NCBI GenBank assembly: GCA_965153355.1
Contig: OZ231126.1
Coordinates: 27,590,001-27,654,000 of the forward strand
Reading direction: 5' to 3'
Length of the DNA stretch: 64,000 nt
Source: Flaccisagitta enflata
Taxonomy: Eukaryota
The position numbers and the translations under genes are program-made. Under the pieces are notes generated by a model that was not told the DNA's origin, searched no databases, and saw only the letters and a list, made by a program, of their open reading frames with translations. Shown here piece after piece: positions 4,672 through 29,050 of this stretch. Within the stretch, counting starts at the first letter, position 1, and every line of letters begins with the position of its first letter.

Positions 4672-5228
4672 TCATCTTCAACTACTGTAATCATCATCAA
4701 CTTCTGACATCATCATTAACTATGGTCATCATCATCAACTTCTGACATCATCAACTACTGTCATCATCATCAACTACTGTCATCATCATCAACTTCTGAC
4801 ATCATCAACTACCGTCATCATCATCAACTGCTGTCAACATCATCAACTACTGTCATCATCATCAACTACTGTCATCATCATCAACTACTGTCATCATCAT
4901 CAACTACTGTCATCATCAACTACTGTCATCATCATCAACTACTGTCATCATCATCAACTACTGTCATCATCATCAACTACTGTCATCATCATCAACTACT
5001 GTCATCATCATCAACTACTGTCATCATCATCAACTACTGTCATCATCATCAACTACTGTCATCATCATCAACTACAACCTCATCATCAACTACTGTCCTC
5101 ATCATCAACTACTGTCATCATCATCAACTACTGTCGTCATCATCAACTACTGTCATCATCATCAACTACTGTCGTCATCATCAACTACTATTGTCATCAT
5201 CAACAACAGTCGTCATCATTATCAACTA
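4672..5228. repeat. 19-bp minisatellite (caactactgtcatcatcat) inside family A copy 1
   Basis: Long tandem array, directly visible. Confidence 0.9.
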
Positions 5229-5717
5229 AAAAAGCAACAGGGAAAAGCATGTTTCACTTGCGTTTTCAGAGGATAATCTAGAAGAGGATAATCATTCTTT
5301 GATTTGGTGAGTGATATTTGTTTTTTGAAAATTTTTTTTGAAAATTTTGTTTGAAAATTTTTTTGATTTTTTTTTTTTTGAAATTTTTTTCAAAAATGTT
5401 TGAATATTTTTTTTCTTTGATTTTTGTTGTCATTATCATTCATTGTTGTCATCATCATCATCCACTATTGTTATCATTATCAAGTTTTGTCATCATTAAA
5501 ACAATACTGAATATTTTTTTTTTTTTTTTTTTTAAATTGCTGTTTTGTCATGTATCTCATCGAGTTGCGTTTACGCAACGAGAAAGCTTCAAAAATTACA
5601 GTCCCCAGTCGGGGACTGTAATTTTGAAGCTTTTTTGATATTCTTTCTGAGCTGCGATAGCCATGAGACCCTTTCTTTCGCCATCCGCGTCGGTCGGCTT
5701 TTGAGTTAGTGAGTCTC

Positions 5718-11888: not shown

Positions 11889-12730
11889 GATTTGAGGTCT
11901 CAGATGCCTGATTTGAGGTCTCAGATGCCTGATTAGAGGTCTCAGATGCCTGATTAGAGGTCTCAGATGCCTGATTTGAGGTCTCAGATGCCTGATTTGA
12001 GGTCTCAGATGCCTGATTTGAGGTCTCAGATGCCTGATTTGAGGTCTCAGATGCCTGATTTGAGGTCTCAGATGCCTGATTTGAGGTCTCAGATGCCTGA
12101 TTTGAGGTCTCAGATGCCTGATTTGAGGTCTCAGATGCCTGATTTGAGGTCTCAGATGCCTGATTTGAGGTCTCAGATGCCTGATTTGAGGTCTCAGATG
12201 CCTGATTTGAGGTCTCAGATGCCTGATTCTGGGTCTAATTCAGGGCTCGAGGCCTGATTATGGGCTGGGAAGGTTTGATCTGGGTCTGATAGGCCTACTT
12301 TGAGGTATAGAAGGCGTGATTTTGGGTTTGAAAGGCGTTTTGGGGTCTGAAAAGGCCAGATTTGGATCTGAGAGGACTGAATTAGGTATTGATAGGCCTG
12401 AATTTGGTATTGATTGGCCTGATTTGAGGTCTAGATGGCCTGATCTGGGTTCCAGCAGGCCTGATTTGGGGTATGTCAAGGCCTGATTTTAGATCTGAAA
12501 GGCCTGATTGGGGTTCTGAGAGGCCTGATTGGGGTTCTAAAGGGCCTAATTTAAGGTCTGGAAAGCCTAATTTGGGGTCTGAAAGGCCTGATTGAGGTTC
12601 TGAGAGGCCTAGATTGAGGTCTGGAAGGCCTGATTTGGGATCTGATAGGCCTGATTTGGGGTCTGAAAGGCCTGATTTTGGGTCTGAAAGGCCTGATTTG
12701 TGGTCTGAAAGGCCTAATTCAAGGCTCAGG
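11889..12730. repeat. 21-bp minisatellite (gatttgaggtctcagatgcct), homogeneous to ~12227 then degenerate
   Basis: About 16 near-perfect units followed by diverged units of the same period. Confidence 0.92.
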
Positions 12731-13930
12731 AGGCCATGTATTGTATCTGACGACTGTCTCTGACAACTGTTTCCAACGATTGTCTTCAACGATTGCTTGA
12801 GCTGGCGTTAGGTCTTTTCTCTCTTGGCATTTACCGTTTGATTTTGCCTCTGGCGTTAGGTTTTGTCTTAGGCGTCGGTTCCTTTTCTTTGGCGCCGGGT
12901 CATTGACTATGGCATTGGGACTAGCGATTTGTTTCCGAATCTGCAGTTTTGGGCGTGTTAAAACTGCTTTCTCCCGGTCTTTTGTTGGGAGACAGGAATA
13001 ACAACGATATCGCCAAGATGCATTGATTAAAGATTTTATAAAAGAGTTTTTTGAATTATGTCGCCTAACGAATATTTGTTTTTCCTTTATAAAAGTGAAA
13101 TTTGATTTATTTAGTCGTTCGAAAACAGGTTGATTCAACACTTATAACACTTTTAGCTGTAATCACTGAGGGAATCGGGGCAAAACTACAAAAACGTCAT
13201 GATGGCGCCTTTTGTATTCACGCAAGCTATCAGATGATACATCAATCAAAGTTATGAATCAATGTGCTGGACTCTAGGGAGGGGGGAAGAGGGGGGTGGC
13301 TACAGTTTTCGTTCTAATTCACTCAAATCTATAGATTGAAGTGATTGGAAATTGGAAAAAGAGAGAAGTTAAGCATGGTTGCCTTCAACTTTTGGAAATT
13401 CTGAAAGATATCAGAGCATCGATGTAAGATAGTAGATCATTTTCAAGGACCTAAATTTTGTTCTGATCTGGAAAATGGATGCTAAGTGCACTCGCTTCTC
13501 GCCTCTCTCCAGTCTCTAGCTCGTTTGCTTTTAATCTTGGCCCACGGGGAGTTGTTTTCCACATTTCGACGCTTTCTTGTTGATACAGCCCCTCTTTAGC
13601 TTTCATCTCGTATACATAGTTCCTGATTCTGTTACTAATTAGATTTCCTCTCCTCCTACTCCACCAACCCGTTATGAACATCACAATTTTAGTAACGCCG
13701 AATTTTGAATCGAATCGATGGGGTGATTGAGGTTTTTAGCGCATGCTCAAACATATGACAAATGAATAGGAAAATATCTTTTTTGTCACCGACGGAGTTT
13801 ACAAATCACAATAACACGCGCGACTAAGACGCATGAGAAATTCTTGATAACCCCCTCCCCTCTTTACAATCGTTCTCTCTCACGCCCCCTCTTAGCACAC
13901 ACTCGCGCAACTACTTTTTTCAGAGGTGAA

Positions 13931-16033: not shown

Positions 16034-17911
16034 GGATCGAATTAGTTAAAGATGTCTCATGTAGGGTAGCGAGGGGTGGGAGGGGTGGGGGGAGGGTGGT
16101 GGGACAAACTCGCCCCACATAAAATTGACCCTATTATTTAACCTAGCATGAATTTGTCTCCCCCTGGTTTCCCTCAGTTCACCTACGGGTCTACCTCTTG
16201 GTCCCCCTGGGTCCACCCCTAGGTTCTTTTTTATATTTTAAAATATGATAAAATTGCTAGTTTGCAAAAAGTACAAAAATCTCATTTACATATTGCAGTC
16301 TCAATACCTTTAAGTTCAAAGGATTTCATAATTCAAGAAACCAAAAAGGGTGGTGGTGGGGGAGGGTGGTGGTTCAAACTGAAAGTGTTTATAAAATACA
16401 CGACTATTATTTAAGATAAAATGAAAATGTCTACCCCTCGGTCTACCCCTCGGTCAATCTACGGGTCTACCACTGGGTCTACCACTGGGTCTACCCCTCG
16501 GTTCTTTTTTATACTTCAAAAATTTGATAAAATTGCTAATTTACAAAAAGTACAAAAATCTCATTTACATATTGCAGTTTCAATACCTTTAAGTTCAAGG
16601 AATTTTATGATTCAAAAAACAAAAATGGGTGGTGGTGGGGGAGGGTGGTGGTTCAAACTGAAAATGCACAGCTATCATTTAATTTACAGCCTAGAGAAAA
16701 GAAACATTTTGCAGATATATATATAGACATTTTTCCCATAGCAAGTAAAATATTTCATTCGTGGTAAAACAAAACCTTTTACCTTAAGCAAGTTAAAATT
16801 TGCCTAACCCCAACACAGGCCATGTTTTTAAATAACATTTTCAGCCTAAACCTAACACAACCCAGCACAAACTAATACAACCCTTAACCTAGCTAATACA
16901 GCCTCAACCTAAATAGCATTTCTATTTCATTATTGTTTGCTTTAAATAAGCATTGCCTAACACAACACAGCTATAACACAAATAACTGTATAACTAAGTC
17001 ACCTAACCTAAGCTAACACTCCCATAGCAACGCCAGAAGCTCAGCACCTAAGCCGACCAAACACAACTAACGCTGGCTTATGTTTTGAGTCCTTAATATT
17101 AAACCTTGTGGGAACTTGCTAAACGAGCCTAACCGCTGCGAAGGCGGCGTCCATTTTCTGGAATTATTAATACAAGTTGTTATGCAAAAATTTATATTTA
17201 AATTAAAGTTGAAGTTGTATTTTTTTTGACAAAAGTTAGAAAGCCCGTTGCAAATATTGGGGTGGAACAGGAATTTGTGTTAGTTTTAAGGATCAAGGAT
17301 GTATTAGAGAGATTTCAAATTAGGAGTTGTATTGGGTTTAGTGACACAGTAGGAATAGCGCTGGATATAAATGTTAAGGTGCAGGTTAGGGACTGTGTTG
17401 GGTTTAGGGCCATGGATTGTGTTGGGTTTGGGGTTAGGGTTTGTATTAGGTTTAGGAGTTAGGGGGTTGTGTTGGGTTTAGTGTTTTTTAAAACAAGTTA
17501 GAGGTAGTTGTAATGTGAGATTAGGTCCAAGAGGGTTGTGTTGGGTTTAGGGTTAGGGGTTGTATTGGGTTTAGGGTTAAGGGTTGAGTTGGATTTAGGG
17601 TAAGGGGTTGTGTTGGGTTTAGGGCTAAGGGTTGCGTTAGATTTAGGGTTAGGGGTTGTGTTAGGTTTAAGGTTAAGGGCTTTATCAAGTTAAAAGCTCA
17701 AACACCTCTTTTACTGATACTACACACCCTTCACACCACCCCTCACCCCACCCTACCCCTAGACCCCACGCTTTACCCTCCCACACCTGGCACACCTCAC
17801 CCCTCGCTACCCCTACATAATTTCAAACCACCCTTCACTTTTTGACCACCCCTAGCTACCCCTCACTACCCCTCACTTCCCCTCATGAGACATCTATAAC
17901 TAATTTTAGCC
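16034..17911. mobile_element. Non-autonomous DNA transposon, Merlin-like (GG...CC termini, 8-bp TSD)
   Basis: Imperfect TIRs ggatcgaattagttaaagatgtctcatg...catgagacatctataactaattttagcc; TSD aaaaggtc at 16026-16033 and 17912-17919; internal ~280-bp duplication and TTAGGG-rich repeats. Confidence 0.7.
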
Positions 17912-18563
17912 AAAAGGTCTTTGAGCTTGCCTCTAACCATCATCATGCGCAGCGTTTTTACGCCCGATTTCGGTTTTGGAAGAGCTGCTCAAAAGAAAAT
18001 AAGCACCTGTTTATTTAACTGCAAACCGAATGAAAAAAAAAAAAAAAGAATTCCCTTATGGAACTGATTCGCTGTTAAGTAAGAAGAAATCCCTACAAAG
18101 AGCAGAAAGAGGGGCTGGTCGATTTACGACATGGCGTACTAACCAAGAACCTAACGGGCTTAAAATAGTTCTTTACTCTCTTCAAGGGGCCTCCGTCTAG
18201 TTTTCATCATAAGATATATATTTTACATCAACCTAACTTGAAAGACTTAAAAAAAAAACTCTTGTGTCATTCGTCCCGCGAAGACTACATTCACCGGCCT
18301 GGTGACATATATAGTTTATCTGGTCTTTCATTCGTTTTAACACTCAAATATTAATAGTGTCCGTTGTATCGCGTACTTTCGGTTATTTGACTGTAGGGTG
18401 TGCTGGTTAATGATTGCTGGTCGGTTAGCCTGTCTGCATTTGCGCAAGAACGACCGCGCGTGGCCTAACACGCCACTGGTTTTGTTTGGAGTTGCTAGTT
18501 GAGGAAATTCCAGATATACTGTAATGTTTACAATTGAGCCCATACCTTTGCACTGGCTCTACA

Positions 18564-18898
18564 ATGAACCTGAAGACGTCGACATTAAACATTTTTGGTT
18601 GCTTCATTATCTGTTGGATACTTTTCACTATGGTCCTGTTGGAAATCTTCGACCGGGCTGCCATGAATCGTTATTTTCCATTTCAAAGTAAAAATGCCCA
18701 ATTGCACCTTGCAAGGGATCAGACGGAAGAAACCGACGAAGAAACAGAAACGGAAGACGTCTTTAATGAAGAACGGGACCAATCCTTAGTAAAACAGAAA
18801 ACGGAACTAGCTGCCATCATTGGCCGGATTCGGGAAAATGCAAATGAATTCACGATCTTTAAGGGCGATGTTTCGGCAGCTGATCGGAAAACTTTGGA
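18564..18898 (+). CDS. Putative first coding exon of the CK2-like kinase (signal-anchor-like segment plus acidic stem); 3' boundary uncertain
   Basis: ATG at 18564; MNLKTSTLN-IFGCFIICWILFTMVLLEIF-DRAAM...DQTEETDEETETEDVFNEE. Separated from the kinase exons mostly by repeat insertions. Only a weak phase-2 donor (GA|GTTCAT) fits the 20275 acceptor. Confidence 0.45.
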
Positions 18899-19131
18899 GT
18901 TCATTGTTACTTTGCACTGCATAAGATACAACGTTTAAACCTAATGTGGTTCTCTGGTCTTTCCTGATACACTTTCGCCAATTCTTTCTCCGCGAAGTCC
19001 TGCGTCGGGGTCAAAGAGTGAGGTTGGAAATGTCCGGGTCAGATTGGAGGACCGATAGACAGGGGTGGGGGGGAATAAAATCAAAGGATTTGGAAATGGG
19101 GAAGCGAATCAAAGGGTGGAAAAACAGTAAT

Positions 19132-20191
19132 AGTCGCAAAAGCGTCAGATGGTCAGCGGTACCCGTGCCCTGCCCAAGTAGGTTGCGAATTTGTGATTGA
19201 GGCTGGGGGAAAGAGCCGGGCAGCGGCCCCGAAGGGGTCGATGACCCATGCTTTCACAAATATGAGGAATTTTCTCCTGCTTCTAGCAATTGGGAATGGG
19301 ACCTTAGGGCTGGCATTTTGGATGGGGATTTGGGCCTTGAGACTGGGATTTGGGCCCCGAGTAAAGGATTTGGATCTTGAGGTTGGGTTTTTGGCCTCGA
19401 GGCTTTGATTTGGGCCTCAAACTGGGATTTGGGCCTTGAGGCTAGGATTTGGGTCTCAAGGATGGGATTTTGGCCTCAAGAATGGGATTTGGGCCTCAAG
19501 GATAGGATTAGGACCTTGAGGCTGGGATATTCGGGTGTGTCAATATGTAAAATGTCTTTTAATCTAACCATCAATATTAGAGAATAAAAATAAATAATTT
19601 TTAAGATCTTTAGTATTTTTATTTTTTCAAATTTCATCTATCTTCGGTTTTTTTCAAAACCCTTATTCAGCCCTTAATTTGTATATTGCTGTGGTGTTGA
19701 TTACATGCAAGAATGATTGGTTATAGGATAATGAAGTTGAAATGCTTTGCAATTTTGATTTTGATTCCAATTGCAAACAGAATGAAAAAATCATTTTCTT
19801 TATAGAAATTTAAAAAATAAAGAAAAAAATATATTCTCAAAGAGTTCATCGACTTTATTTACACCAAAACTGAGTGCAGTCACTCAAAGTATATATATTT
19901 TTGTTAATATTCAATCGCGCTAAAAAAACGGAAGATACATGAATTTTGAAAAAATAAAGATGGTAAAGGTCTTAGAATTCATTTCTCTACATTCCCTAAA
20001 GTCGATGATCAGATCAAACGAACTTTTGCATATTGACACACCCGACTGGGATATAGGCCTCAAGACTGGGATTTAGGCCTCCAAGTAGGATTTGGGTTGG
20101 CGGGGGGGGGGGACGGAGAAGGAGAAGGAGAAAATTCCCCATGTGTGTGAAAGCATAGGTCATCGACCCCTTCGGGGCCGCTGCCCAAAAA
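19132..20191. mobile_element. Family D element interrupted by a 9-bp-TSD insertion
   Basis: gggcagcggccccgaaggggtcgatgacc ... ggtcatcgaccccttcggggccgctgcccaaaaa with internal 21-bp repeats. Confidence 0.7.
19531..20045. mobile_element. Mutator (MULE)-like MITE
   Basis: TIRs tcgggtgtgtcaatatg...catattgacacacccga; 9-bp TSD ctgggatat at 19522-19530 and 20046-20054. Confidence 0.75.
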
Positions 20192-20274
20192 GGAAATTCA
20201 AATAGATTTTGCACTTTTAGCAGAATTACTATATAAGAAATAGTAATAGTGCAATTTAATGACGGCCTTCTTAG

Positions 20275-20450
20275 TGGAGTAGAGCACTTCGAATACCCAT
20301 TGGAGTACTCGCGAAGGCCCAAATCATTCATTAACGTAAATGAGAATGCGTCATTTCTGCCGAGAGAGAATTCGCTAGCGTCATTTCGTCATCACAAACG
20401 ATATTACTTATACGACGAGCATTACATTGTTTGGCAAGACTTAGAAGCTA
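20275..20450 (+). CDS. CK2-alpha-like kinase, exon with CK2 N-terminal segment (5' boundary uncertain)
   Basis: ...SRRPKSFINVNEN...KRYYLYDEHYIVWQDLEA resembles CK2alpha SRARVYTDVN...REYWDYESHVVEWG; phase-1 GTAAGT donor at 20451. Confidence 0.75.
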
Positions 20451-20792
20451 GTAAGTCAAATATATGGAAAGATACTTGACAATTTAGAGATAGTTATCTT
20501 TGTGAGGTGACATATTTGGAATGGGTATCTTTGCGAGGTGGTTCAGTGAAGGTTAAAGATAACCGGATACATGGAAACAGTCGCGGGTGGGTGGGTAGGG
20601 GCGCCGATGAAGGTCAGTGTGGCAGTGAGGTCAACAACCTTAAACACATCACAACCGACCGATTGACGCGCTCAAGGCGTGTATTCTCGCAATACATTGC
20701 ATCCTGTGTACGTTGAAAGATTGTCGTGGGCTGAATATGGCGAGTGTTTTTGGGTGTGCACTACTATTCATGGATCCATATGAACTGTTTAG

Positions 20793-20911
20793 ATTATGCG
20801 TTGACCAAGGAGCTTGGCTCCGGGCATTACTGCGAAACTTACCTGGCGGAAGATCGCAAACGAAAAGTTGAAGTTGTCATCAAGTTTTTAAAGCCTGTCA
20901 GAATATCCAAG
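20793..20911 (+). CDS. CK2-alpha-like kinase, Gly-loop and beta3 Lys exon
   Basis: (N)YALTKELGSGHYCETYLAEDRKRKVEVVIKFLKPVRISK; AG/GT boundaries, phase 1/0. Confidence 0.9.
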
Positions 20912-21052
20912 GTTTGCCTACTCATGTCTTATTGGATTAACCTGTTGAACAGTTTTACAATCTTGATCGTAACTGTCTTCTTAAATCCTTGTGTGATTTA
21001 ACTCCCATTTCTGTGTCCATCTACGGCGTTTGTGATCTCGTACGGTATTTAG

Positions 21053-21325
21053 GTGAAAAGAGAACTAACGATCTTGGAGAAAGTTCGGAATGTTTCCCAT
21101 GTAGTCAACTTATTGGGACCAGTTCGTGATTCTGAAGGGACGCCCGCGTTCGCTTTGGAGTTTGAACCCCACGATGAAGGCCGTTACGAGTCGATGACCA
21201 TCGCAGAGATCAAGATCTTTATGAGGCAGCTATTAAAGGCGTTGAAAGCAGTTCATTCCCTCGGGATTATACACAGAGATATCAAGCCCAGCAATTTAAG
21301 ATATGACTTCGAGAGAATGCGATTG
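21053..21325 (+). CDS. CK2-alpha-like kinase, alphaC to catalytic loop exon
   Basis: VKRELTILEK...LLKALKAVHSLGIIHRDIKPSNLRYDFERMRL; 273 nt, phase 0/0; GTACGT donor. Confidence 0.93.
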
Positions 21326-21570
21326 GTACGTGGTTTCCCTGTCTGACATGTCTGCATGTGGCCATACTGTTAAGCATGTCTTTGTTTGGCTTTGAGGTAG
21401 ACCAGATCGATTGATAGTCGCCCTGAAGCCTGCGCCTCAGGTATACTGGCGCTTCCACACGGCGTATCTGCAGATCTCTGCTTCTCTCCGACTGTCAGAC
21501 AAATATGCGTTGTTTCTAAATTTTTTGTGTTTTGCTTTTGGGCAGCGACCCCGAAGGGGTCGATGACATA

Positions 21571-24319
21571 CAGTGCGGCGCAAAAGAAAGTTTTTGGTAG
21601 TATTTAATCCTATTTTATAGCAGTAGACATACCCTTTTAACTATTTTCTTATCAACTATTATTTAGACTACTATACTTGAATGAACCTTCAGTTTGCCAA
21701 AAAAGTGAAAAATGGCGCAGTATCAAAAAAAAAGTTGCAAGGGTGTCTCTTTAGGTTTCATCACCCTAATGCCTTAAAATCTATTGAAAATGAACACTTA
21801 ACTGCTTAACTATGGGCCAGAACCATAGAAAATCCATGACCGTTTGAAAGCTCTGCAAAAAGTCTTTTAAATGCAAGAAGGTAAGAAGAAAAGAATCACT
21901 GATTGAAAAAAATGCTCTTTTTTTATTTTTGTCCCCGACGAACAGTTTTCGTCGGTGACTATGTGATGGACCTGATCGTGTAGTCTGTTGTCGTCGTCGT
22001 CGTTCGTTCGTTTAAAACCTTCTCATATCTTTTGAACCAGACCTCAGAAGTTCATGAAACTTTACCAGTGGTATTTTTATGTCAATGGGAGTTTGTGTAC
22101 CAATTTTCAGAAAAATTCATTAACTTTTACTACCCTTTGCCTATTATTTTTGTAGTAATATTTAGCTGGGACTTAGGTGGTTTACATAGGTAGAGGGTAG
22201 TAAAGGTTAATGATTTTTTTTTTAATTTGGTATACAAGTAGAGGGTAGTAAATAAACATCCCCTGCAAAATTCGAATTAAATCTGAGGTCTGGTTTATGA
22301 GATATTAGCTTATTTATGTAGTAGTATGTTGCTAGGACTTAGGGCAATTTACATAGGCAAAGGGTGGTAAAGGTATGTGAATTTTTTCCTTATTTGGTAC
22401 ACAAGTAGAGGGTAGTAAATAAATAACCCCTGCAAAATTCGAATTAAATCTGAGGTCTGGTTTATGAGATATTAGCTTATTTATGTAGTATTATGTTACT
22501 ATGACTTAGGCAGTTTACATAGGCAAAGGGTAGCAAAGTTATATGAATTCTTTTTTAATTTGGTATACAAGTAAAGGATATTAATTGAACTGCCCCTGCA
22601 AAATTTGAATTAAATCTGAAGTCTGATTTATAAGATATTAGCTTATTAATGTAGTAATATGTTACTAGGATTTATATAGAGGATTGGAGTTGATGAATTC
22701 TTTTACTTGCTCATTTATTACATTCTGATTTTTCTTTAGGTTTGCCATCATGGATTTCAAGATTCATCTTCAACTACTGTCATCATCTTCAACTACTGTC
22801 ATCATCTTCAACTACTGTCATCATCTTCAACTACTGTCATCATCTTCAACTACTGTCATCATCTTCAACTAATGTCATCATCTTCAGCTACTGTCATCAT
22901 CTTCAACTACTGTCATCATCCTCAACTACTGTCATCATCCTCAACTACTGTCATCATCTTCAACTACTGTCATCATCTTCAACTACTGTCATCATCTTCA
23001 ACTACTGTCATCATCTTCAACATTGTCATATCTTCAACTTGTCATCATCTTCAATTCCATTAATATCTTCAATTCATTCTGTCATCAACTTCATACTTTC
23101 ATTTTCAACTACTGTCATCATTTTCAACTACTGTCATCATCTTCAACTACTGTCATATCTTCAACTTCTTGTCATCATCTTCAACTACTGTCATCATTCA
23201 ATTACTGTCATCATCTTCACTACTGTCATCATCTTCAACTACTGTCATCATCTTCAACTACTGTCATCATCTTCAACTACTGTCATCTTTCAACTACTGT
23301 CATCATCCTCAACTTGTCATCTCGACTACAAATTTTTTGAAAATTTTTTAAAAATTTTGTGGAATTTTTAAAATTTTTTTGAAAAATTTTTGAAAATTTT
23401 TGAAAAATTTTGAAAAATTTTTTAAAATTTAAAAAATTTTTGAAAATTTTTGAAAAAAAATTTTTGAATTTTTTTGAATTTTTTTTTTGAAAATTTTTTT
23501 AAAAAATTTTTAAATATTTTCATTTAGATTTTTAGACTATTGTTATCATTATCAAGTTTTGTCATCATTAAAACAATATTGAATATTTTTTCTTCTTGAA
23601 ATTGCTGTCTTGTCGTGTATCTTATCGAGTTGCGTTTACGCAACGAGAAAGCTTCAAAAATTACAGTCCCCAGTCGGGGACTGTAATTTTGAAGCTTTTT
23701 TTTTCAACATTTGAGCAATTTTAGTTTTTATATTTTTGTCAATGATACAGCTTGAGATTGTCTAAGCAACTCGTTTTCCATGAGCAAATTAAAGAGCTTC
23801 AAATTTTCTTCAAAATGGCGCCAAGAACAAATTTGAACTCTTTGCGTTTAACTTTTTTGTTTGAATAAAGATAACCCATGAAAATCACTTAGTGAATTTC
23901 TAAATTCTTTACCACCTGTTTTCATCCTTATGCCTTTTTTAAATGGATAGAGCTAGGACATCCAGCAAGGAATCATTTGAAAGAGCTCTCACAGCTTCAA
24001 AATGGTATGTATTTCTCATTGCTTGGAAACAAGTAGTTCTATTTTTCCAGTTTATTCCCAAGTAGTTCTAGTTTATTCCCAAGTAGTTCTAGTTTATTCC
24101 CAAGTAGTTCTATTTTTCTAGTTTATTCCCAACTGATTTTTGAGACATCAATTTCAAACTTCTGTCACTTTCAAACAGTTTTACCGACATAATTGTGCTT
24201 GGCGGCAAATGCTTCATTTTTTGAAGCTTTAATTTTTTCATGATTTTTTCCAAAATCCATCAATTAATACCAGAGATATAACATGGAAAAGACTTAAAAC
24301 TTTTTTTTGCGCCGCACTG
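21571..24319. mobile_element. Tc1/mariner-like MITE containing a family A insertion
   Basis: TIRs cagtgcggcgcaaaagaaagtttt...aaaacttttttttgcgccgcactg; TA TSD. Confidence 0.8.
21926..23700 (+). mobile_element. Helentron/DINE-1-like family A, copy 2
   Basis: Same termini as the 3497 copy; three ~166-bp units; 19-bp array caactactgtcatcatctt at ~22765-23320. Confidence 0.8.
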
Positions 24320-24858
24320 TATGCTTTCACATGTGGGGAGTTTTCTTTTCCTCCTCATTCTCCTTCTTTATCCCCCCCCTCGACTCTAGGCCCAAATCCC
24401 AACCTCTAGACCAAAATCCCATTTCCAAGGCCCAAACCCCGTCCTTGAGGCCCCAACTCCGTCCTTGAGGCCCCAACTCCGTCCTTGAGGCCCCAACCCC
24501 GTCCTTGAGACCCAAATCCCATTCTTGATGCTTAAATCCCATTCTTGATACTTTACTCTTAGCTTCAAGGCCCAAATCTCTACCTGGTGGCCCAAATCTC
24601 AACCTTGAGGACCAAATCCCAGCCTCAAGGTCGGTATCCCCGCGACTAGGCCTAAATCCCACCTTCAAGGCTAAAATCCAGCCTTTAGCCCCATTTGCTA
24701 GAAGGAGGAGCACGACAAAATTCCTTGTGTGAAAGCAAAGGTCATTGACCCCTTTGGGGCCGCTGCCCTGCTCCTTCATCTTCAAGCACAACCTACTTAA
24801 GCAGGGCACAGGTACCGCTGACCATCTAACACTTTTGCGACCATTCTGGTTGTCACAG

Positions 24859-24981
24859 GTCTTGATCGATTTTGGTCTGGCTGAATATTACCTTCCTGGC
24901 GCCCGTTATAATTGTGATGTGGCAACCAAGAATTACAAGGCTCCCGAGTTACTTCTGGGATATGGAAATTATGATTATTCG
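24859..24981 (+). CDS. CK2-alpha-like kinase, activation segment exon
   Basis: VLIDFGLAEYYLPGARYNCDVATKNYKAPELLLGYGNYDYS, compared with CK2 [31 protein letters not shown]; 123 nt, phase 0/0. Confidence 0.93.
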
Positions 24982-25092
24982 GTTTGACCTTGTTTCAAAA
25001 TAGTTCACTTCCTCGACAGCGGGAGGGAAATCCAGTTGTGCATAGTTCAGTATGTTAATGAAAACCTGGTAAATTTCCTTGATGTGCTTCAG

Positions 25093-25257
25093 GTTGATAT
25101 GTGGGGTGTGGGCTGTTTGCTTGTAAGGCAAGTATTCGGTTTCCAACCTTTCGCTGCCGATACGAAATTTCAAGTGGTAACTGCCATAGGGAACATATTG
25201 GGTCGAAGAGGGATGGACGAATATATCCGAAAATACGATTTCGACGTGCGCGAGGAG
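25093..25257 (+). CDS. CK2-alpha-like kinase, subdomain IX-X exon
   Basis: VDMWGVGCLLVRQVFGFQPF...ILGRRGMDEYIRKYDFDVREE; 165 nt, phase 0/0. Confidence 0.92.
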
Positions 25258-25461
25258 GTTTGCTCAATCAGTGCACGCGTTTTGACGGACATTTCACTGA
25301 ACTGACATGCATGCTTGGAGACGTTACATGTAAAGCTCAAGTGTGGGTGGTCATTGGTCAACATGTTTCTTGTGGGATGTCATGTGTCCTTTTTGGCTGT
25401 TGCCCTGTTTAGATTTTGCCGTCGGTGTTACTTCCAGTTGCCGCCGTTTTTCCGCCTTCAG

Positions 25462-25692
25462 GCAGTGGAGCCAATGGATCAGATCGAGCAAGAAATGACA
25501 ATTGGATGGTACAATTTTCTGCGACATGACGCGAGACCGAATGAGCGCAAAAGGGACTTGGATGATGCTATTGACTTGATTGACAATTTACTTGTCTATG
25601 ATCATATGAACAGACTGACGGCGCAAGAGGCGCTTAATCATCCATTTTTGAAGTTGGGCAGAACCAAGCGGCGTAAGCGCCATGAAACGTGA
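25462..25692 (+). CDS. CK2-alpha-like kinase, terminal exon
   Basis: ...AIDLIDNLLVYDHMNRLTAQEALNHPFLKLGRTKRRKRHET*, compared with CK2 [28 protein letters not shown]; cgccttcag acceptor. Confidence 0.92.
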   Translation, partial: AVEPMDQIEQEMTIGWYNFLRHDARPNERKRDLDDAIDLIDNLLVYDHMNRLTAQEALNHPFLKLGRTKRRKRHET

Positions 25693-26359
25693 GTGTATAA
25701 GAAATGGTCCGTTTGGCACATAGTTATCGGAAGGATGGAATCTCATCTCATGATTTTTACAGTGATTTGAAAGACGTGCGGACTAGCCCATTATCAATTT
25801 GCGAATGAATTCATTTTTGATGCATGTCAAATTTTTCAATACATCTCAGTATTTGTCCTTAGACTGTTACCTTGCTTTTATTCAGTTTAAACATACTTTT
25901 CCTTTGACCAAGATAGCATTCTTAAAAATTATCTATCTCTCAAATTGGAAGCCTTCTAGAATTCTTGTTTTAAAGACAATTCTGTAGTGATCAGGACCCT
26001 GTAAAACTGCACTGGCCACTTGAAGAACCTGTATACTGTAAACCGTACTCTTGTGCTGAAATATTAAAAAAAACCATCAGGACCTTAAAATCCCCAGTAG
26101 ATATATTTACATCCGGTATTAATCTCAAAAAACTGATGATGTCGTTTTATTTTATTTGATAGAGATAAAGAAATAGGTGGTTAAGTTTTTCATCAACGGG
26201 AATCCTTAAAGCAAACACAATAACTCCTCATTTGAGCTGTTTCTGTCAAAACTTTTCTTACTCAAGATTTGGTAGTGGGTCATGTCATAAATCAATTAAT
26301 ATCCAAAAAAAAATTGTATGTCAAAAAAAGAAAAGTAAAAGCCTTAGTTGTCACTAATT

Positions 26360-28714
26360 ATGGAGGGCGCAAAGAGAAAGGTCATTCTTCGGAAGAAGGA
26401 GCGGTCATCGATTCATCTTCGACAGCCTCGCTTTAAAACCGACGTAAACAAAACTATGAACGATTCACTTTCATCTCCCGCGTCTTCGTCGATATTAAAG
26501 CGTGACTCCACTTCCACTAACTCAACGCCGGATATCGGCATCGTAAAAGGAAAGTCTCCCGACAGGGTCGTCAAGGCCGTCCAGTTCGTGCTTCCGCCTC
26601 CGAGCACGGATGACGAGGATTACGACGACGACGACGACGAAGACTACGAAAACGACGATTTTTCTGGGGATTCTGAGAATATGGAGGATGGTCCCGGTGG
26701 TGAGAAGAAGGCGTGTGAAATCCAAAGTGGAAGTAGTGGGAAATCATTGACTGGTGTAGGGATTGACGCAATCATCGACCATGACCGTCCATCGACGGCT
26801 GACATGGAAGAACAAGTCGATAATCAAGTTGAATCTGTGGAAAAGGATCCCGTGGTACCGGAAATTATGGATGCGGCCAGTGACAGTGATGGCCACCAAG
26901 TTGGACTCGATGTAATCGGACAGACGGGGACGTCTTGCTCGGACGAGGGTGTTGATGGGTCCAGCCCGGAGGAAGGCGTCATTGACTTGGGACATGTAGA
27001 ATTCGAATTAAATGACGGTCCTTGCGGGGATGATGACGTTTCTGAGTCAACCAAGTCGAACCCTCTCAAGTCGAATACTACCGAGAGTTCCCACGACGAT
27101 GTGGAAGCGCTTGACAGTGTTTCCGTCTTTGTATTTCACAAAATTCCCGGCCAAGTTACCGACGGTGGAAATGCGGAATCTGAAATGAGCGTGAGTTCAC
27201 TCGGCAATGATGAACCGTTGAAAAAAGATTTTACACCTGACGCGCAAGGATGTGTCATGGAAAATGAACAGGTGAAAGTTGAGACAGAACAAAAAGAGGA
27301 CCACACGAGGGCGTCAGAGGTTGGCGATGGAGACATGAGTGAAGAGCGCGCGTTTGCGTTATTTGGGGTTCCGACCTCCGATGTACCTACTGCCCAAGTT
27401 GTGACCGCGAAGACGCAGAAAGACAGAATTCCTCTGGTAGAAAATCACTCCGAGGAGAGCGAAAAACCGAGAGATACCACGCCGTCGTCATTATCGTTGA
27501 AGGCGCGGCAATCTGAAGATTCACGTAAACAATCTGTCGTCGAATCAAACCCAGTCGAGGGTGTTAAGGGGATCGCGTCAAAATTCAATAACATCACTGA
27601 CAATAATAATAATAACAGCAATGACGAGGAGCCCATCCCTGAGACGAATTATTTGAAAAAAGTCCAAACAAAAATTGATCGAGAAATTGACTCCTTGAAT
27701 GGTTGTGATGAAGTTTTTGATGAGGGCGATGATGAAAAATTGAAATCCTCGACTTTATCTACAATCGACCCACGAAGGGATTGCGGAGAGACTGGACGGA
27801 ATATACCAAAAAATTCCTCGACTGACTCCCAATTGGAAATTCCTCCTTCGACGAAACTTCAACCGTCGCCTCAACCACCGTCGACGACCATCTCTTGGGC
27901 TGAGAGGGTGAAATCCACGCGTCCCAGGAGCGTTATTTCCTCCAACTCGGCTACCCCCAAAAATACCCTCCCCCCTTTCTCACCCGACTCTTCGTCCTTT
28001 CACTCATCGGGGTCATCTTTGAGTAGAAGATTTTCGAGCCGCACCCTTCAAAGAATGCTCTCTTCTTCCTCCTCTCATCTTGAGAGTAATGACATCAAGA
28101 ATTCGTCTTCGTCCATGCACGTTCACAACCTCATCACGCTTCCTCGCGATTTTCGGTTAAGCGACAGTATGGATGGTTCTTTGGAGGAAGATTTAAAATG
28201 GCTGCAGGGTCACGATAACAACGAAAATAATCGAAATAGTAAGAACTCTTCTCTTCTCGATAGTTTCGACAAAAGTGCGCCGGGAGGAACTGGCAACGTC
28301 ACCCCGAAAGATCGCCCGCGCGGAATTTTTACCACGATGTCGTCTTCTTCGCGAGACGCGATCAGAATGACGAGCGTAAAGACCATGACGTTGCCTAGCA
28401 GACACGAACGCACCACGTCCAATTCTAGCTTCGCCAATGAAAGCAACGACGCGAATGATAAACCTAGTAAAGCCGGATCGAGTTCGCCCCCGTCTTTGGC
28501 GACCACCGAAAATACAATCAAATCCAACGCCGCGAATTATACCTCTAACGTTGCCAAAGCAGTCAATGTCACGCCCGTGGAAGTAAAAAAATCATCGACC
28601 ACTTTGAAATCTGATCCCGAAAAAATTAGCGAGTCTCCCCGCGCGGAATTTCTCGCATTACGGGGATCGAAGATGGAGCTTAGTGGAGCTCGTCCTGCTA
28701 GTCGTTCAGCTACC
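26360..28714 (+). CDS. Large exon encoding a ~785-aa acidic then Ser/Thr-rich, probably disordered region of unknown function
   Basis: 2.4-kb non-repetitive ORF. Start could be ATG 26360, ATG 26456 or the acceptor ending at 26425. Phase-0 donor ACC|GTAAGT at 28715; the ORF's nominal stop lies inside a repeat. Confidence 0.8.
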
Positions 28715-28744
28715 GTAAGTCATCGCCTGCGATCTTTAAACAGA

Positions 28745-29050
28745 AAAACAAGGCCAAGTGAAGGCCAATAAGTGCGCCTCGCTTGATTAAGAATTTGTGA
28801 ACGAACGTTTTTGATGAATGAATGAATGAATGAATGAATGAATGAATGAATGAATGAATGAATGAATGAATGAATGAATGAATGAATGAAAATGTGGTGA
28901 GACATAAAAGGTGACAGGAACGAAGAACTACGAAGAATCAGCCGTTTTTCGCATTTCAAACGTTTGCGTGACTGACCGACCGACCAACTTACCGACCAAC
29001 CGACCAACGGACATGACCTCTTATAGAAGTGCGAGGACGCACTTAAAAAG
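28745..29050 (-). mobile_element. Family I-like element variant carrying (GAAT)n
   Basis: aacaaggcc...ggcc hairpin; subterminal IR taagtgcg...cgcactta; accg microsatellite; A-run end. Confidence 0.6.

Follow-up and report, generated by a model that had tools for sequence, protein, structure and literature searches.

The 64,000-nucleotide stretch of DNA that we analysed (the window) carries an expressed gene of a marine animal, organised into eight exons of which seven are coding. Its 473 aa product is a divergent CK2 paralogue with a predicted membrane anchor. It is composed of a 9-residue tail, a hydrophobic segment of ~20 residues, an acidic stalk, a pre-kinase block and a CK2alpha-like domain, and RNA contigs place tail, hydrophobic segment, stalk and CK2-like domain in one and the same protein. 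The sole close relative that we found, P0001 (494 aa), has the matching order of tail, hydrophobic segment, stalk and kinase. We lean slightly towards a single-pass type II membrane kinase whose catalytic domain would be exposed to the ER/Golgi lumen or to the outside of the cell.

The initial annotation had proposed that an ORF starting at ATG 18564 provides the N-terminus of the kinase, and had named as its weak point that no donor joining this ORF to the kinase exons could be recognized. RNA junctions removed this difficulty. All supporting RNA stems from a single study, namely its metatranscriptome runs X1, X2 and X3, and in each of the three runs spliced contigs join 18898 to 20275 in frame across a GT..AG intron. 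The donor of exon 2 is GA/GTTCAT, cut at 18898/18899; only two other GTs in the ORF have a compatible phase. All three contigs that extend from upstream into exon 3 use this donor. The coding sequence of the kinase mRNA thus begins in the exon with ATG 18564. One contig, X2 record 6 (1483 nt), extends from the 5'UTR past the end of exon 5, and X1 record 1 (1546 nt) contains almost all of the CDS. No other ATG precedes ATG 18564 in the X2 record 6 mRNA: an in-frame stop lies 5' of the start codon, and the spliced leader of 153 nt contains no ATG. The gene has the following features:

18186..18313, + strand: 5'UTR exon, from X2 record 6, with the joint 18313 to 18539 (GT..AG); 18186 is the contig end, and the true transcript start may be further upstream
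18539..18898, + strand: exon 2, with start codon 18564, residues 1-111 and two bases of codon 112; its end is shared by X1 record 1, X2 record 6 and X3 record 11
18591..18650, + strand: hydrophobic segment, residues 10-29, predicted signal anchor or membrane span; aligns with the P0001 segment
18717..18779, + strand: acidic stalk, residues 52-72, rich in D, E and T, read from the translation
18899..20274, + strand: intron 2 (1376 nt), from the RNA joint; filled with nested inverted-repeat (MITE-like) elements
20275..20450, + strand: exon 3, conserved pre-kinase block and CK2-type N-terminal segment, with the NAS sequon (20345-20353); spliced in RNA to 18898 on its 5' side and to 20793 on its 3' side, alignment to P0001 and CK2alpha
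20793..20911, + strand: exon 4, Gly-rich loop, VAIK lysine and degraded basic cluster; RNA joint 20909 to 21051 ('cut +2')
21053..21325, + strand: exon 5, helix C glutamate to HRD catalytic loop, with the NVS sequon at 21089-21097; RNA contigs, Pfam Pkinase (E 2.2e-12), 66% identity to P0001
24859..24981, + strand: exon 6, DFG, activation segment and APE; beyond 21327, the overhanging end of X1 record 1 continues into it; 80% identity to P0001, splice sites
25093..25257, + strand: exon 7, C-lobe helices; based on homology to P0001 (47%) and AG/GT sites
25462..25692, + strand: exon 8, C-terminal helices, polybasic tail and stop codon 25690-25692; tblastn of P0001, splice site and frame

The six kinase exons have AG acceptors and GT donors throughout, and with frame and catalytic residues in place they encode an intact CK2alpha-like kinase, as had been annotated. 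The earlier view that mostly repeats separate them from the ORF also held. Intron 2 contains an inverted repeat at 19218-20186, whose 67-nt arms (19218-19284 and 20120-20186) are 91% complementary, and another at 19531-20045 with 124-nt arms (19531-19654 and 19922-20045). Very high, repeat-derived RNA depth was seen at 19064-19187 and 20056-20179. A candidate poly(A) signal, ATTAAA, is located at 26063. A poly(A) run, X6, of which ~6% was read, yielded 155 reads, all partial and on repeat ends, with none on the exons; this run possibly represents another organism and is thus uninformative on expression. We found no tandem paralogues in the window, where tblastn with P0001 detects one copy.

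The N-terminal part of the ORF had been described as a short tail, a hydrophobic stretch and an acidic stem, and we could locate all three. The mean Kyte-Doolittle hydropathy over 19 residues (KD19) peaks at 2.52 at residues 10-28, and its maximum beyond residue 45 is 1.11. In P0001 the peak is 2.86 at residue 13, and the two segments share a G, a W and the closing I-F. An acidic D/T/H/L repeat forms the stalk of P0001 at the corresponding place. The AF2 model of P0001 has a helix at residues 9-41, and residues 38-87, with pLDDT below 50, are disordered in the model. Whether homologues share the membrane segment had been suggested as a check on the annotation; the only close homologue that we found does. 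Overall, 217 of 462 positions (47%) are identical between the two proteins, rising to 56% over 331 kinase columns.

Searches for further members gave only distant kinases. Among 307 proteins retrieved at E <= 1e-30 in the representatives search, none of the best 150 was more than 45% identical to P0001. Scanning metagenome contigs with the P0001 protein reduced 596 stretches to 8 loci, all of them distant kinases and none a family member, and the ESM Atlas returned only generic kinase clusters. With the N-terminal exon alone as query for longer proteins, none of 77 candidates reached E <= 0.01, and the stalk matched no family in Pfam.

Both sequence and fold assign the kinase domain to CK2. 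The best matches of P0001 among the 120 listed were CK2alpha or CK2-like proteins with 37–40% identity, none closer being among them. A PDB search gave a best E of 2.3e-69, and the 60 shown of 249 matches were all CK2alpha or CK2alpha'. The AF2 model (pLDDT 79) resembles human CK2alpha with a Foldseek target TM-score of 0.91. The window protein is 34–39% identical to canonical CK2alpha (115 of 339 positions in the lamprey protein). Pfam recognizes Pkinase only; the closest homologues are all CK2, and there is no Fam20 homology. The annotation as 'CK2alpha-derived' thus stands at the family level, while the position within the family is less clear-cut. In a quick tree of 42 hand-picked rows, the clade of the window protein belongs to the CK2 ingroup and is separate from the clade of animal CK2alpha (support 99), on a stem of 1.87 changes per column; grouping it with animal CK2alpha was not rejected by the AU test (p 0.396). 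The same tree placed a group of protist CK2-like proteins (P0102) as its sister (SH-aLRT 91), which may be long-branch attraction.

The catalytic residues are complete in both the window protein and P0001: the VAIK lysine, the helix C glutamate, HRD, the catalytic-loop Asn, the Mg-binding Asp of DFG and the APE glutamate. Judged from these residues, the kinase domain is probably active, though divergent. Both proteins have DFG for the DWG of CK2 (W in 17 of 18 canonical CK2alpha) and APE for GPE. The derived changes common to the two are K49H, S51C, K75I, K76S/A, H160S/G, W176F, R191D/N, R195K and G199A. Among 18 hand-picked canonical CK2alpha sequences, the CK2 residue is kept in 13 at H160 and G199, in 14 at K75, in 15 at K76 and in 17–18 at the other positions. 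In the Gly-rich loop encoded by exon 4, the His and Cys thus replace Lys49 and Ser51. Of the basic residues for substrate recognition (the K74-K77 cluster, K49, H160, R191, R195 and K198), only K77 and K198 are kept, together with K79 and R80. Since several of the basic residues behind the acid-directed specificity of CK2 are replaced, the substrates probably differ from those of CK2. At the CK2beta interface, Y39, L41 and F54 are conservatively kept, and I69 is F or S. The polybasic tail at the C-terminus of the window protein is missing in P0001.

Rule-based prediction from KD19 and flank charges indicates an N-terminal signal peptide or type II signal anchor. According to the positive-inside or charge-difference rule, membrane orientation can be predicted from the charges flanking the segment. 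On the N side, the flank carries a net charge of +1 in the window protein and +3 in P0001; on the C side, the values over 15 residues are 0 and -2, and in both proteins a strongly acidic stalk comes next. The N flank is more positive than the C flank, and therefore an N-in/C-out orientation with the kinase domain in the lumen is predicted, by a simple rule applied to two sequences. Most likely the hydrophobic segment would stay uncleaved and serve as a type II signal anchor; cleavage, as of a long signal peptide, is less likely. Insertion would be co-translational with the N-terminus remaining cytosolic, and the kinase domain, facing the ER/Golgi lumen or the exterior, would phosphorylate secretory or surface proteins. 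A lumenal domain is plausible, with the balance tipping a little in its favour, and it is the flank charges that speak for it. A mitochondrial outer-membrane or P450-type N-anchor was considered as well and is unlikely: a basic C-side flank is expected for such anchors, and the C-side flank here is neutral or acidic.

Two further features had been put forward as signs of lumenal life, namely N-glycosylation sequons and additional cysteines. Both sequons are present (NAS at residue 136, NVS at residue 223), but two is a chance-level count (shuffle mean 1.9; at least two in 58% of 2000 shuffles), and cytosolic CK2alpha also has two. The cysteines of the GHYCET and YNCDVA motifs were likewise found, at residues 184 and 320; the latter is absent from P0001. 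P0001 has only two cysteines (206 and 372), the window protein three outside the hydrophobic segment. The two conserved ones are in the Gly-rich loop and in the C-lobe D-M-W-x-x-G-C block. They thus lie in different lobes, which makes a disulfide unlikely, and comparison of the window protein with P0001 revealed no conserved cysteine pair. We therefore regard sequons and extra cysteines as uninformative on location. With two sequons in each protein and two conserved cysteines, neither conserved disulfides nor an excess of N-glycan sites marks the pair as adapted to the lumen. Known lumenal kinases are usually disulfide-bonded, which counts against a lumenal reading. So does the polybasic C-terminal tail, which could equally be a nuclear-localisation-like signal.

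It is possible, if rather unlikely, that the kinase is tethered facing the cytosol, by an N-out or outer-membrane anchor in the ER, Golgi, plasma or an organelle membrane, and that its domain acts locally. The short, unfolded N-terminal tail could be translocated, and long, very hydrophobic segments, such as the present ones with KD19 of 2.5–2.9, favour N-out insertion. The same reading would accommodate the missing conserved disulfide, the chance-level sequons, the retained CK2beta-interface residues and the NLS-like C-tail, but the flank charges and the acidic stalk oppose it in both proteins. A soluble divergent CK2 paralogue, with the hydrophobic exon left untranslated in the main product because translation begins at Met23 or Met34 or because alternative 5' splicing takes out the ATG, seems improbable to us. 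In favour of it, a splice from 18300 to 18575 in X3 record 10 leaves out the ATG; this contig also has Ile in place of Met23, its first ATG would be that of Met34, and the encoded protein would lack the hydrophobic segment. It is, however, one contig of 174 nt with a depth of 3.95 and 5 mismatches in 120 nt, whereas X2 record 6 has ATG 18564 first. The N-terminal segment is also conserved as coding sequence in P0001, with a Met, tail and hydrophobic segment of its own, and the variants are mostly synonymous: two of three in codons 1–29 (tail and hydrophobic segment), and across exon 2 five of eight when counted as single bases or four of seven as variant codons. A minor splice form may nevertheless supply a soluble version of the kinase.

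Very improbable, finally, is a decaying or non-functional transcribed CK2alpha duplicate. The long branch, the loss of several CK2 hallmark residues and the transposons that fill the introns would fit such a fate. Against it, the frame is open over 473 codons, all catalytic residues are kept, and the gene is spliced and expressed. Moreover, the 56% kinase-domain identity and the derived residues shared with P0001 point to selection on a common new function.

Canonical animal CK2alpha is soluble and nuclear or cytosolic. CK2alpha (CSNK2A1 and CSNK2A2; CMGC group) is the best match of the window protein in sequence and fold. The two have in common the CK2-type N-terminal segment, a complete catalytic core and no evident requirement for an activation-loop phospho-site. 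CK2alpha differs by lacking the hydrophobic segment and stalk (~110–150 residues) and by its DWG and GPE motifs, intact K74-K77 cluster, K49, H160 and R191; in the tree, animal CK2alpha sequences are on much shorter branches. Fam20C, Fam20B and Four-jointed are built from a short cytosolic tail, a single span, a stalk and a lumenal catalytic domain. Their layout is like the one predicted here, but there is no sequence relationship, and the window protein has no conserved disulfides. In VLK/PKDCC, POMK/SGK196 and FAM69/DIPK, a signal sequence or type II anchor precedes a fold of the eukaryotic kinase type; a review (PMC9941534) and a paper on FAM69 (PMC3696010) deal with such kinases. These families are ancient and highly atypical, whereas the window protein is a recognizable CMGC/CK2 kinase with a canonical core. 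Ordinary leaderless CK2 is also found outside cells as ecto-CK2, with an unclear export route. A membrane-tethered (cell-tethered) CK2alpha has been engineered in the laboratory, according to a preprint (bioRxiv 10.1101/2024.03.20.585970). In both cases CK2-type activity reaches extracellular or surface proteins, as it may here; the window gene differs in being a dedicated gene that encodes its anchor. Our literature search found no natural counterpart of a membrane-anchored CK2. Some protist CK2-like proteins (P0102/P0114/P0125, and P0169 and P0035 with MMETSP members) do have a signal-like segment before a CK2-like domain, and DFG or DLG, as well as APE, occurs in the P0102 group too. They are 31–43% identical to P0001, carry large inserts in the kinase domain and have neither stalk nor pre-kinase block. 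Some N-terminal extensions of fungal CK2-like proteins look like gene-model artefacts.

We consider it possible, at somewhat less than even chances, that in a lineage of marine animals a CK2alpha-derived CMGC kinase acquired a type II anchor and an acidic stalk and so entered the secretory pathway, its substrate-binding surface being remodelled, as an independent origin of lumenal or ecto kinases. To our knowledge, the well-studied kinases of the animal secretory pathway all belong to a few atypical families. CK2 is the textbook cytosolic and nuclear acid-directed kinase and was long confused with the 'Golgi casein kinase'. If the proposal is true, recruitment to the lumen or the cell surface is open to a mainstream kinase fold, and lumenal or ecto kinases have a further independent origin, unrelated to Fam20, Four-jointed, VLK and POMK. 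The debated 'ecto-CK2' activity would likewise gain a counterpart in nature. The case is compact and easily tested, with two sequons, one span, a well-understood fold and thousands of inhibitors and structures. With the domain on the cytosolic side, too, the kinase would be unusual as a CK2-type enzyme of altered specificity that is permanently tethered to a membrane.

The upstream open reading frame, which starts at ATG 18564, is part of the kinase gene. Because exon 3, the first kinase exon, opens with codon position 3, the exon before it has to supply the first two bases of that codon, a phase offered by just three GTs within the ORF (18578, 18638 and 18899). Contigs from three metatranscriptome runs (X1, X2 and X3, all from a single study) were mapped, together with poly(A) reads from one further run, on positions 17700–21400. 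The joint 18898 -> 20275 (GT..AG) was found in all three contig runs, and no contig in these runs reached exon 3 from any other upstream site within this stretch. The initial annotation had seen no strong donor linking the ORF to the kinase exons; the joint in the contigs settles this point, since it shows that the weak donor GA|GTTCAT is real and in use.

RNA contigs carrying the joint 18898 -> 20275
X1 record 1, 1546 nt
X2 record 6, 1483 nt
X3 record 11, 289 nt

In X2 record 6, a 5'UTR exon (18186–18313) is spliced to 18539. The spliced leader has no ATG upstream of 18564 and contains an in-frame stop there. X1 record 1 continues beyond exon 5 into exon 6 sequence; junctions 5/6, 6/7 and 7/8 lie beyond the stretch mapped with RNA and are based on this loose contig end, homology and splice sites. 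The poly(A) run matched only repeats between 17700 and 21400.

Kinase exons, all with proper splice sites
20275–20450, forward strand, exon 3
20793–20911, forward strand, exon 4
21053–21325, forward strand, exon 5
24859–24981, forward strand, exon 6
25093–25257, forward strand, exon 7
25462–25692, forward strand, exon 8

The joined exons give 473 codons with an open frame throughout, and by tblastn the gene is present only once in the window, a eukaryotic, repeat-rich region with GT-AG introns. Translation puts the hydrophobic stretch (residues 10–29), both sequons (N136 and N223) and the two cysteines 184 and 320 where they had initially been annotated; further cysteines are at 350 and, inside the hydrophobic segment, at 13 and 17. 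The 19-residue Kyte-Doolittle mean peaks at 2.52 (residues 10–28) and never exceeds 1.11 past residue 45; an acidic run (residues 52–72) lies C-terminal to the hydrophobic stretch. Pfam recognized only Pkinase in the protein and had no match for tail and stalk.

One contig, X3 record 10 (174 nt, depth 3.95), splices 18300 -> 18575 and skips the start codon. It differs from the window at 5 positions in 120 nt and has Ile in place of Met23, so that translation would begin at Met34 and the encoded protein would lack the hydrophobic segment. The record could stem from a soluble isoform of low abundance, from faulty splicing or from the transcript of a related genotype.

The surroundings of the gene are rich in repeats. 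A MITE-like inverted-repeat family occupies introns (19064–19290, 20056–20190), and its end sequence recurs in ORF lists near 21540–21600, 24296–24323 and 24690–24790; RNA coverage of the element ends is very high in each of the four runs, poly(A) included, with summed contig depths reaching about 1280. A kinase intron also holds a 19-nt tandem array (22764–23314, 29.6 copies), followed by A/T-rich short repeats. Near-identical repeat ORFs point to a similar array 18 kb upstream (4691–5281), and the two look like copies of one composite repeat element. Arrays of a 21-nt repeat (11958–12257, 11 copies; 12282–12750, 21 copies) produce long artificial ORFs on both strands. Just downstream of the kinase gene, on the same strand, an 807-codon open frame (26348–28771, +), low in complexity, rich in Ser/Asp/Glu and without a Pfam match, probably belongs to the neighboring gene as one large exon. 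The window's first exon (2–160, within a terminal exon part that spans 2–235, +) encodes a piece of translocon-associated protein alpha (TRAP-alpha/SSR1). The match to its mammalian counterpart covers 53 residues (E 4e-19) and shows that the DNA is from an animal.

A search with the N-terminal exon alone found nothing. Exon 5 as query yielded one close protein among 464 candidates, the unnamed P0001 (66% identity; 494 aa, encoded on a 1768-nt contig), whose cluster has seven unnamed members from three archives. P0001 is identical to the window protein at 217 of 462 positions (47%) and has the same order of parts: basic N-terminal tail, hydrophobic segment, acidic repeat stalk, a conserved pre-kinase block and the kinase domain. 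The two hydrophobic segments align, with a G, a W and a closing I-F in common; a homologue thus shares the transmembrane segment that had been proposed. The AF2 model of P0001 (pLDDT 79) has a helix at 9–41, disorder at 42–92, helices at 93–138 and a confident kinase domain. With P0001 as query, 416 of 7999 scored proteins reached E <= 1e-10, and the top-scoring among the 120 matches listed were CK2alpha or CK2-like (37–40% identity). An exhaustive representative search gave 307 proteins at E <= 1e-30, the best 150 of which all had <=45% identity, and a metagenome-contig scan gave eight matches, all distant kinases. As these searches brought no further close match, the family is either small or poorly sampled.

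In the top representative-search match, the predicted protein P0127 (1918 aa, unnamed), six CK2-like kinase domains stand in tandem, and the catalytic motifs of some are degraded; either a tandem array of genes has been fused, or this is a genuine multi-kinase protein. Five protist-type CK2-likes (P0102, P0114, P0125, P0169 and P0035, the last two with MMETSP members) begin with hydrophobic, signal-like segments. Large inserts, a DFG or DLG motif and APE mark the P0102 group, which joins the window clade in our quick tree. Such CK2-likes (P0102, P0169, P0035) are probably independent cases.

The kinase itself is of CK2 type. All 60 listed PDB sequence matches were CK2alpha or CK2alpha' (best E 2.3e-69), and the P0001 model reached a Foldseek target TM-score of 0.91 against human CK2alpha. 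All catalytic residues are present. When 18 canonical CK2alpha sequences, picked by hand, serve as the reference, P0001 and the window protein have in common the derived changes K49H, S51C, F54Y, K75I, K76S/A, V116E, H160S/G, W176F (DWG -> DFG), R191D/N, R195K and G199A (GPE -> APE). At several of these positions CK2 has basic residues that hold its acidic substrates. With these altered and the catalytic residues kept, we expect the kinase to be active and its specificity to have changed. A quick tree built from 42 rows (the window protein, P0001 and 40 proteins hand-chosen from 274: named CK2s, N-terminally extended matches and three outgroups) united the two (SH-aLRT 100) on a long stem of 1.87, within CK2 and outside the animal CK2alpha clade. 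Their sister group (91) was three of the unnamed signal-bearing CK2-likes, P0102, P0114 and P0125. Long-branch effects are likely in this tree, and a topology that groups the two proteins with animal CK2alpha is not rejected by the AU test (p 0.396).

On which side of the membrane does the kinase domain lie? The hydrophobic segment is N-terminal and the only one in the protein. Its N-side flank carries a charge of +1 in the window protein and +3 in P0001, its C-side flank 0 and -2, and the strongly acidic stalk follows in both. Type II anchors are positive on the N side and neutral or acidic on the C side, while N-out and mitochondrial outer-membrane anchors are reversed. The flanks therefore resemble a type II anchor, a pattern that would favor a lumenal or extracellular domain, and we lean towards this placement. 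A membrane tether facing the cytosol is possible but rather unlikely. Several features count against lumenal placement or are neutral to it: the sequons listed in the initial annotation are at chance level (two, against a shuffle mean of 1.9, with 58% of shuffles reaching two) and equal in number to those of cytosolic CK2alpha; only two cysteines are conserved, one in the Gly-loop and one in the D-M-W-x-x-G-C block of the C-lobe, hence in different lobes; and the polybasic C-tail of the window protein, which is not conserved, could be read as nuclear-localization-like or as a convertase site. Against a cytosolic orientation stand the flank charges, the reverse of those in N-out and mitochondrial outer-membrane anchors. 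A mainly soluble product seems improbable, and a decaying copy very improbable. Of the proposed re-routing of a CK2 paralog to the ER/Golgi lumen or a membrane, the hydrophobic segment and its RNA join to the kinase are borne out, and the lumenal placement is plausible only.

Full-text searches of papers outside the subscription journals turned up no naturally occurring paralogue of CK2alpha that carries a signal anchor. Papers on Fam20C, secretory kinases and FAM69 (PMC9941534, PMC3416761, PMC3696010) provide the background. The present kinase differs from ecto-CK2, which in published reports (e.g. PMC2587710, PMC4450227) is ordinary CK2 found outside cells; a cell-tethered CK2alpha, according to a preprint (10.1101/2024.03.20.585970), was made by engineering. 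The gene described here is real, expressed and conserved, and its product is a divergent CK2-type kinase with a predicted membrane anchor, plausibly a secretory-pathway kinase derived from CK2.
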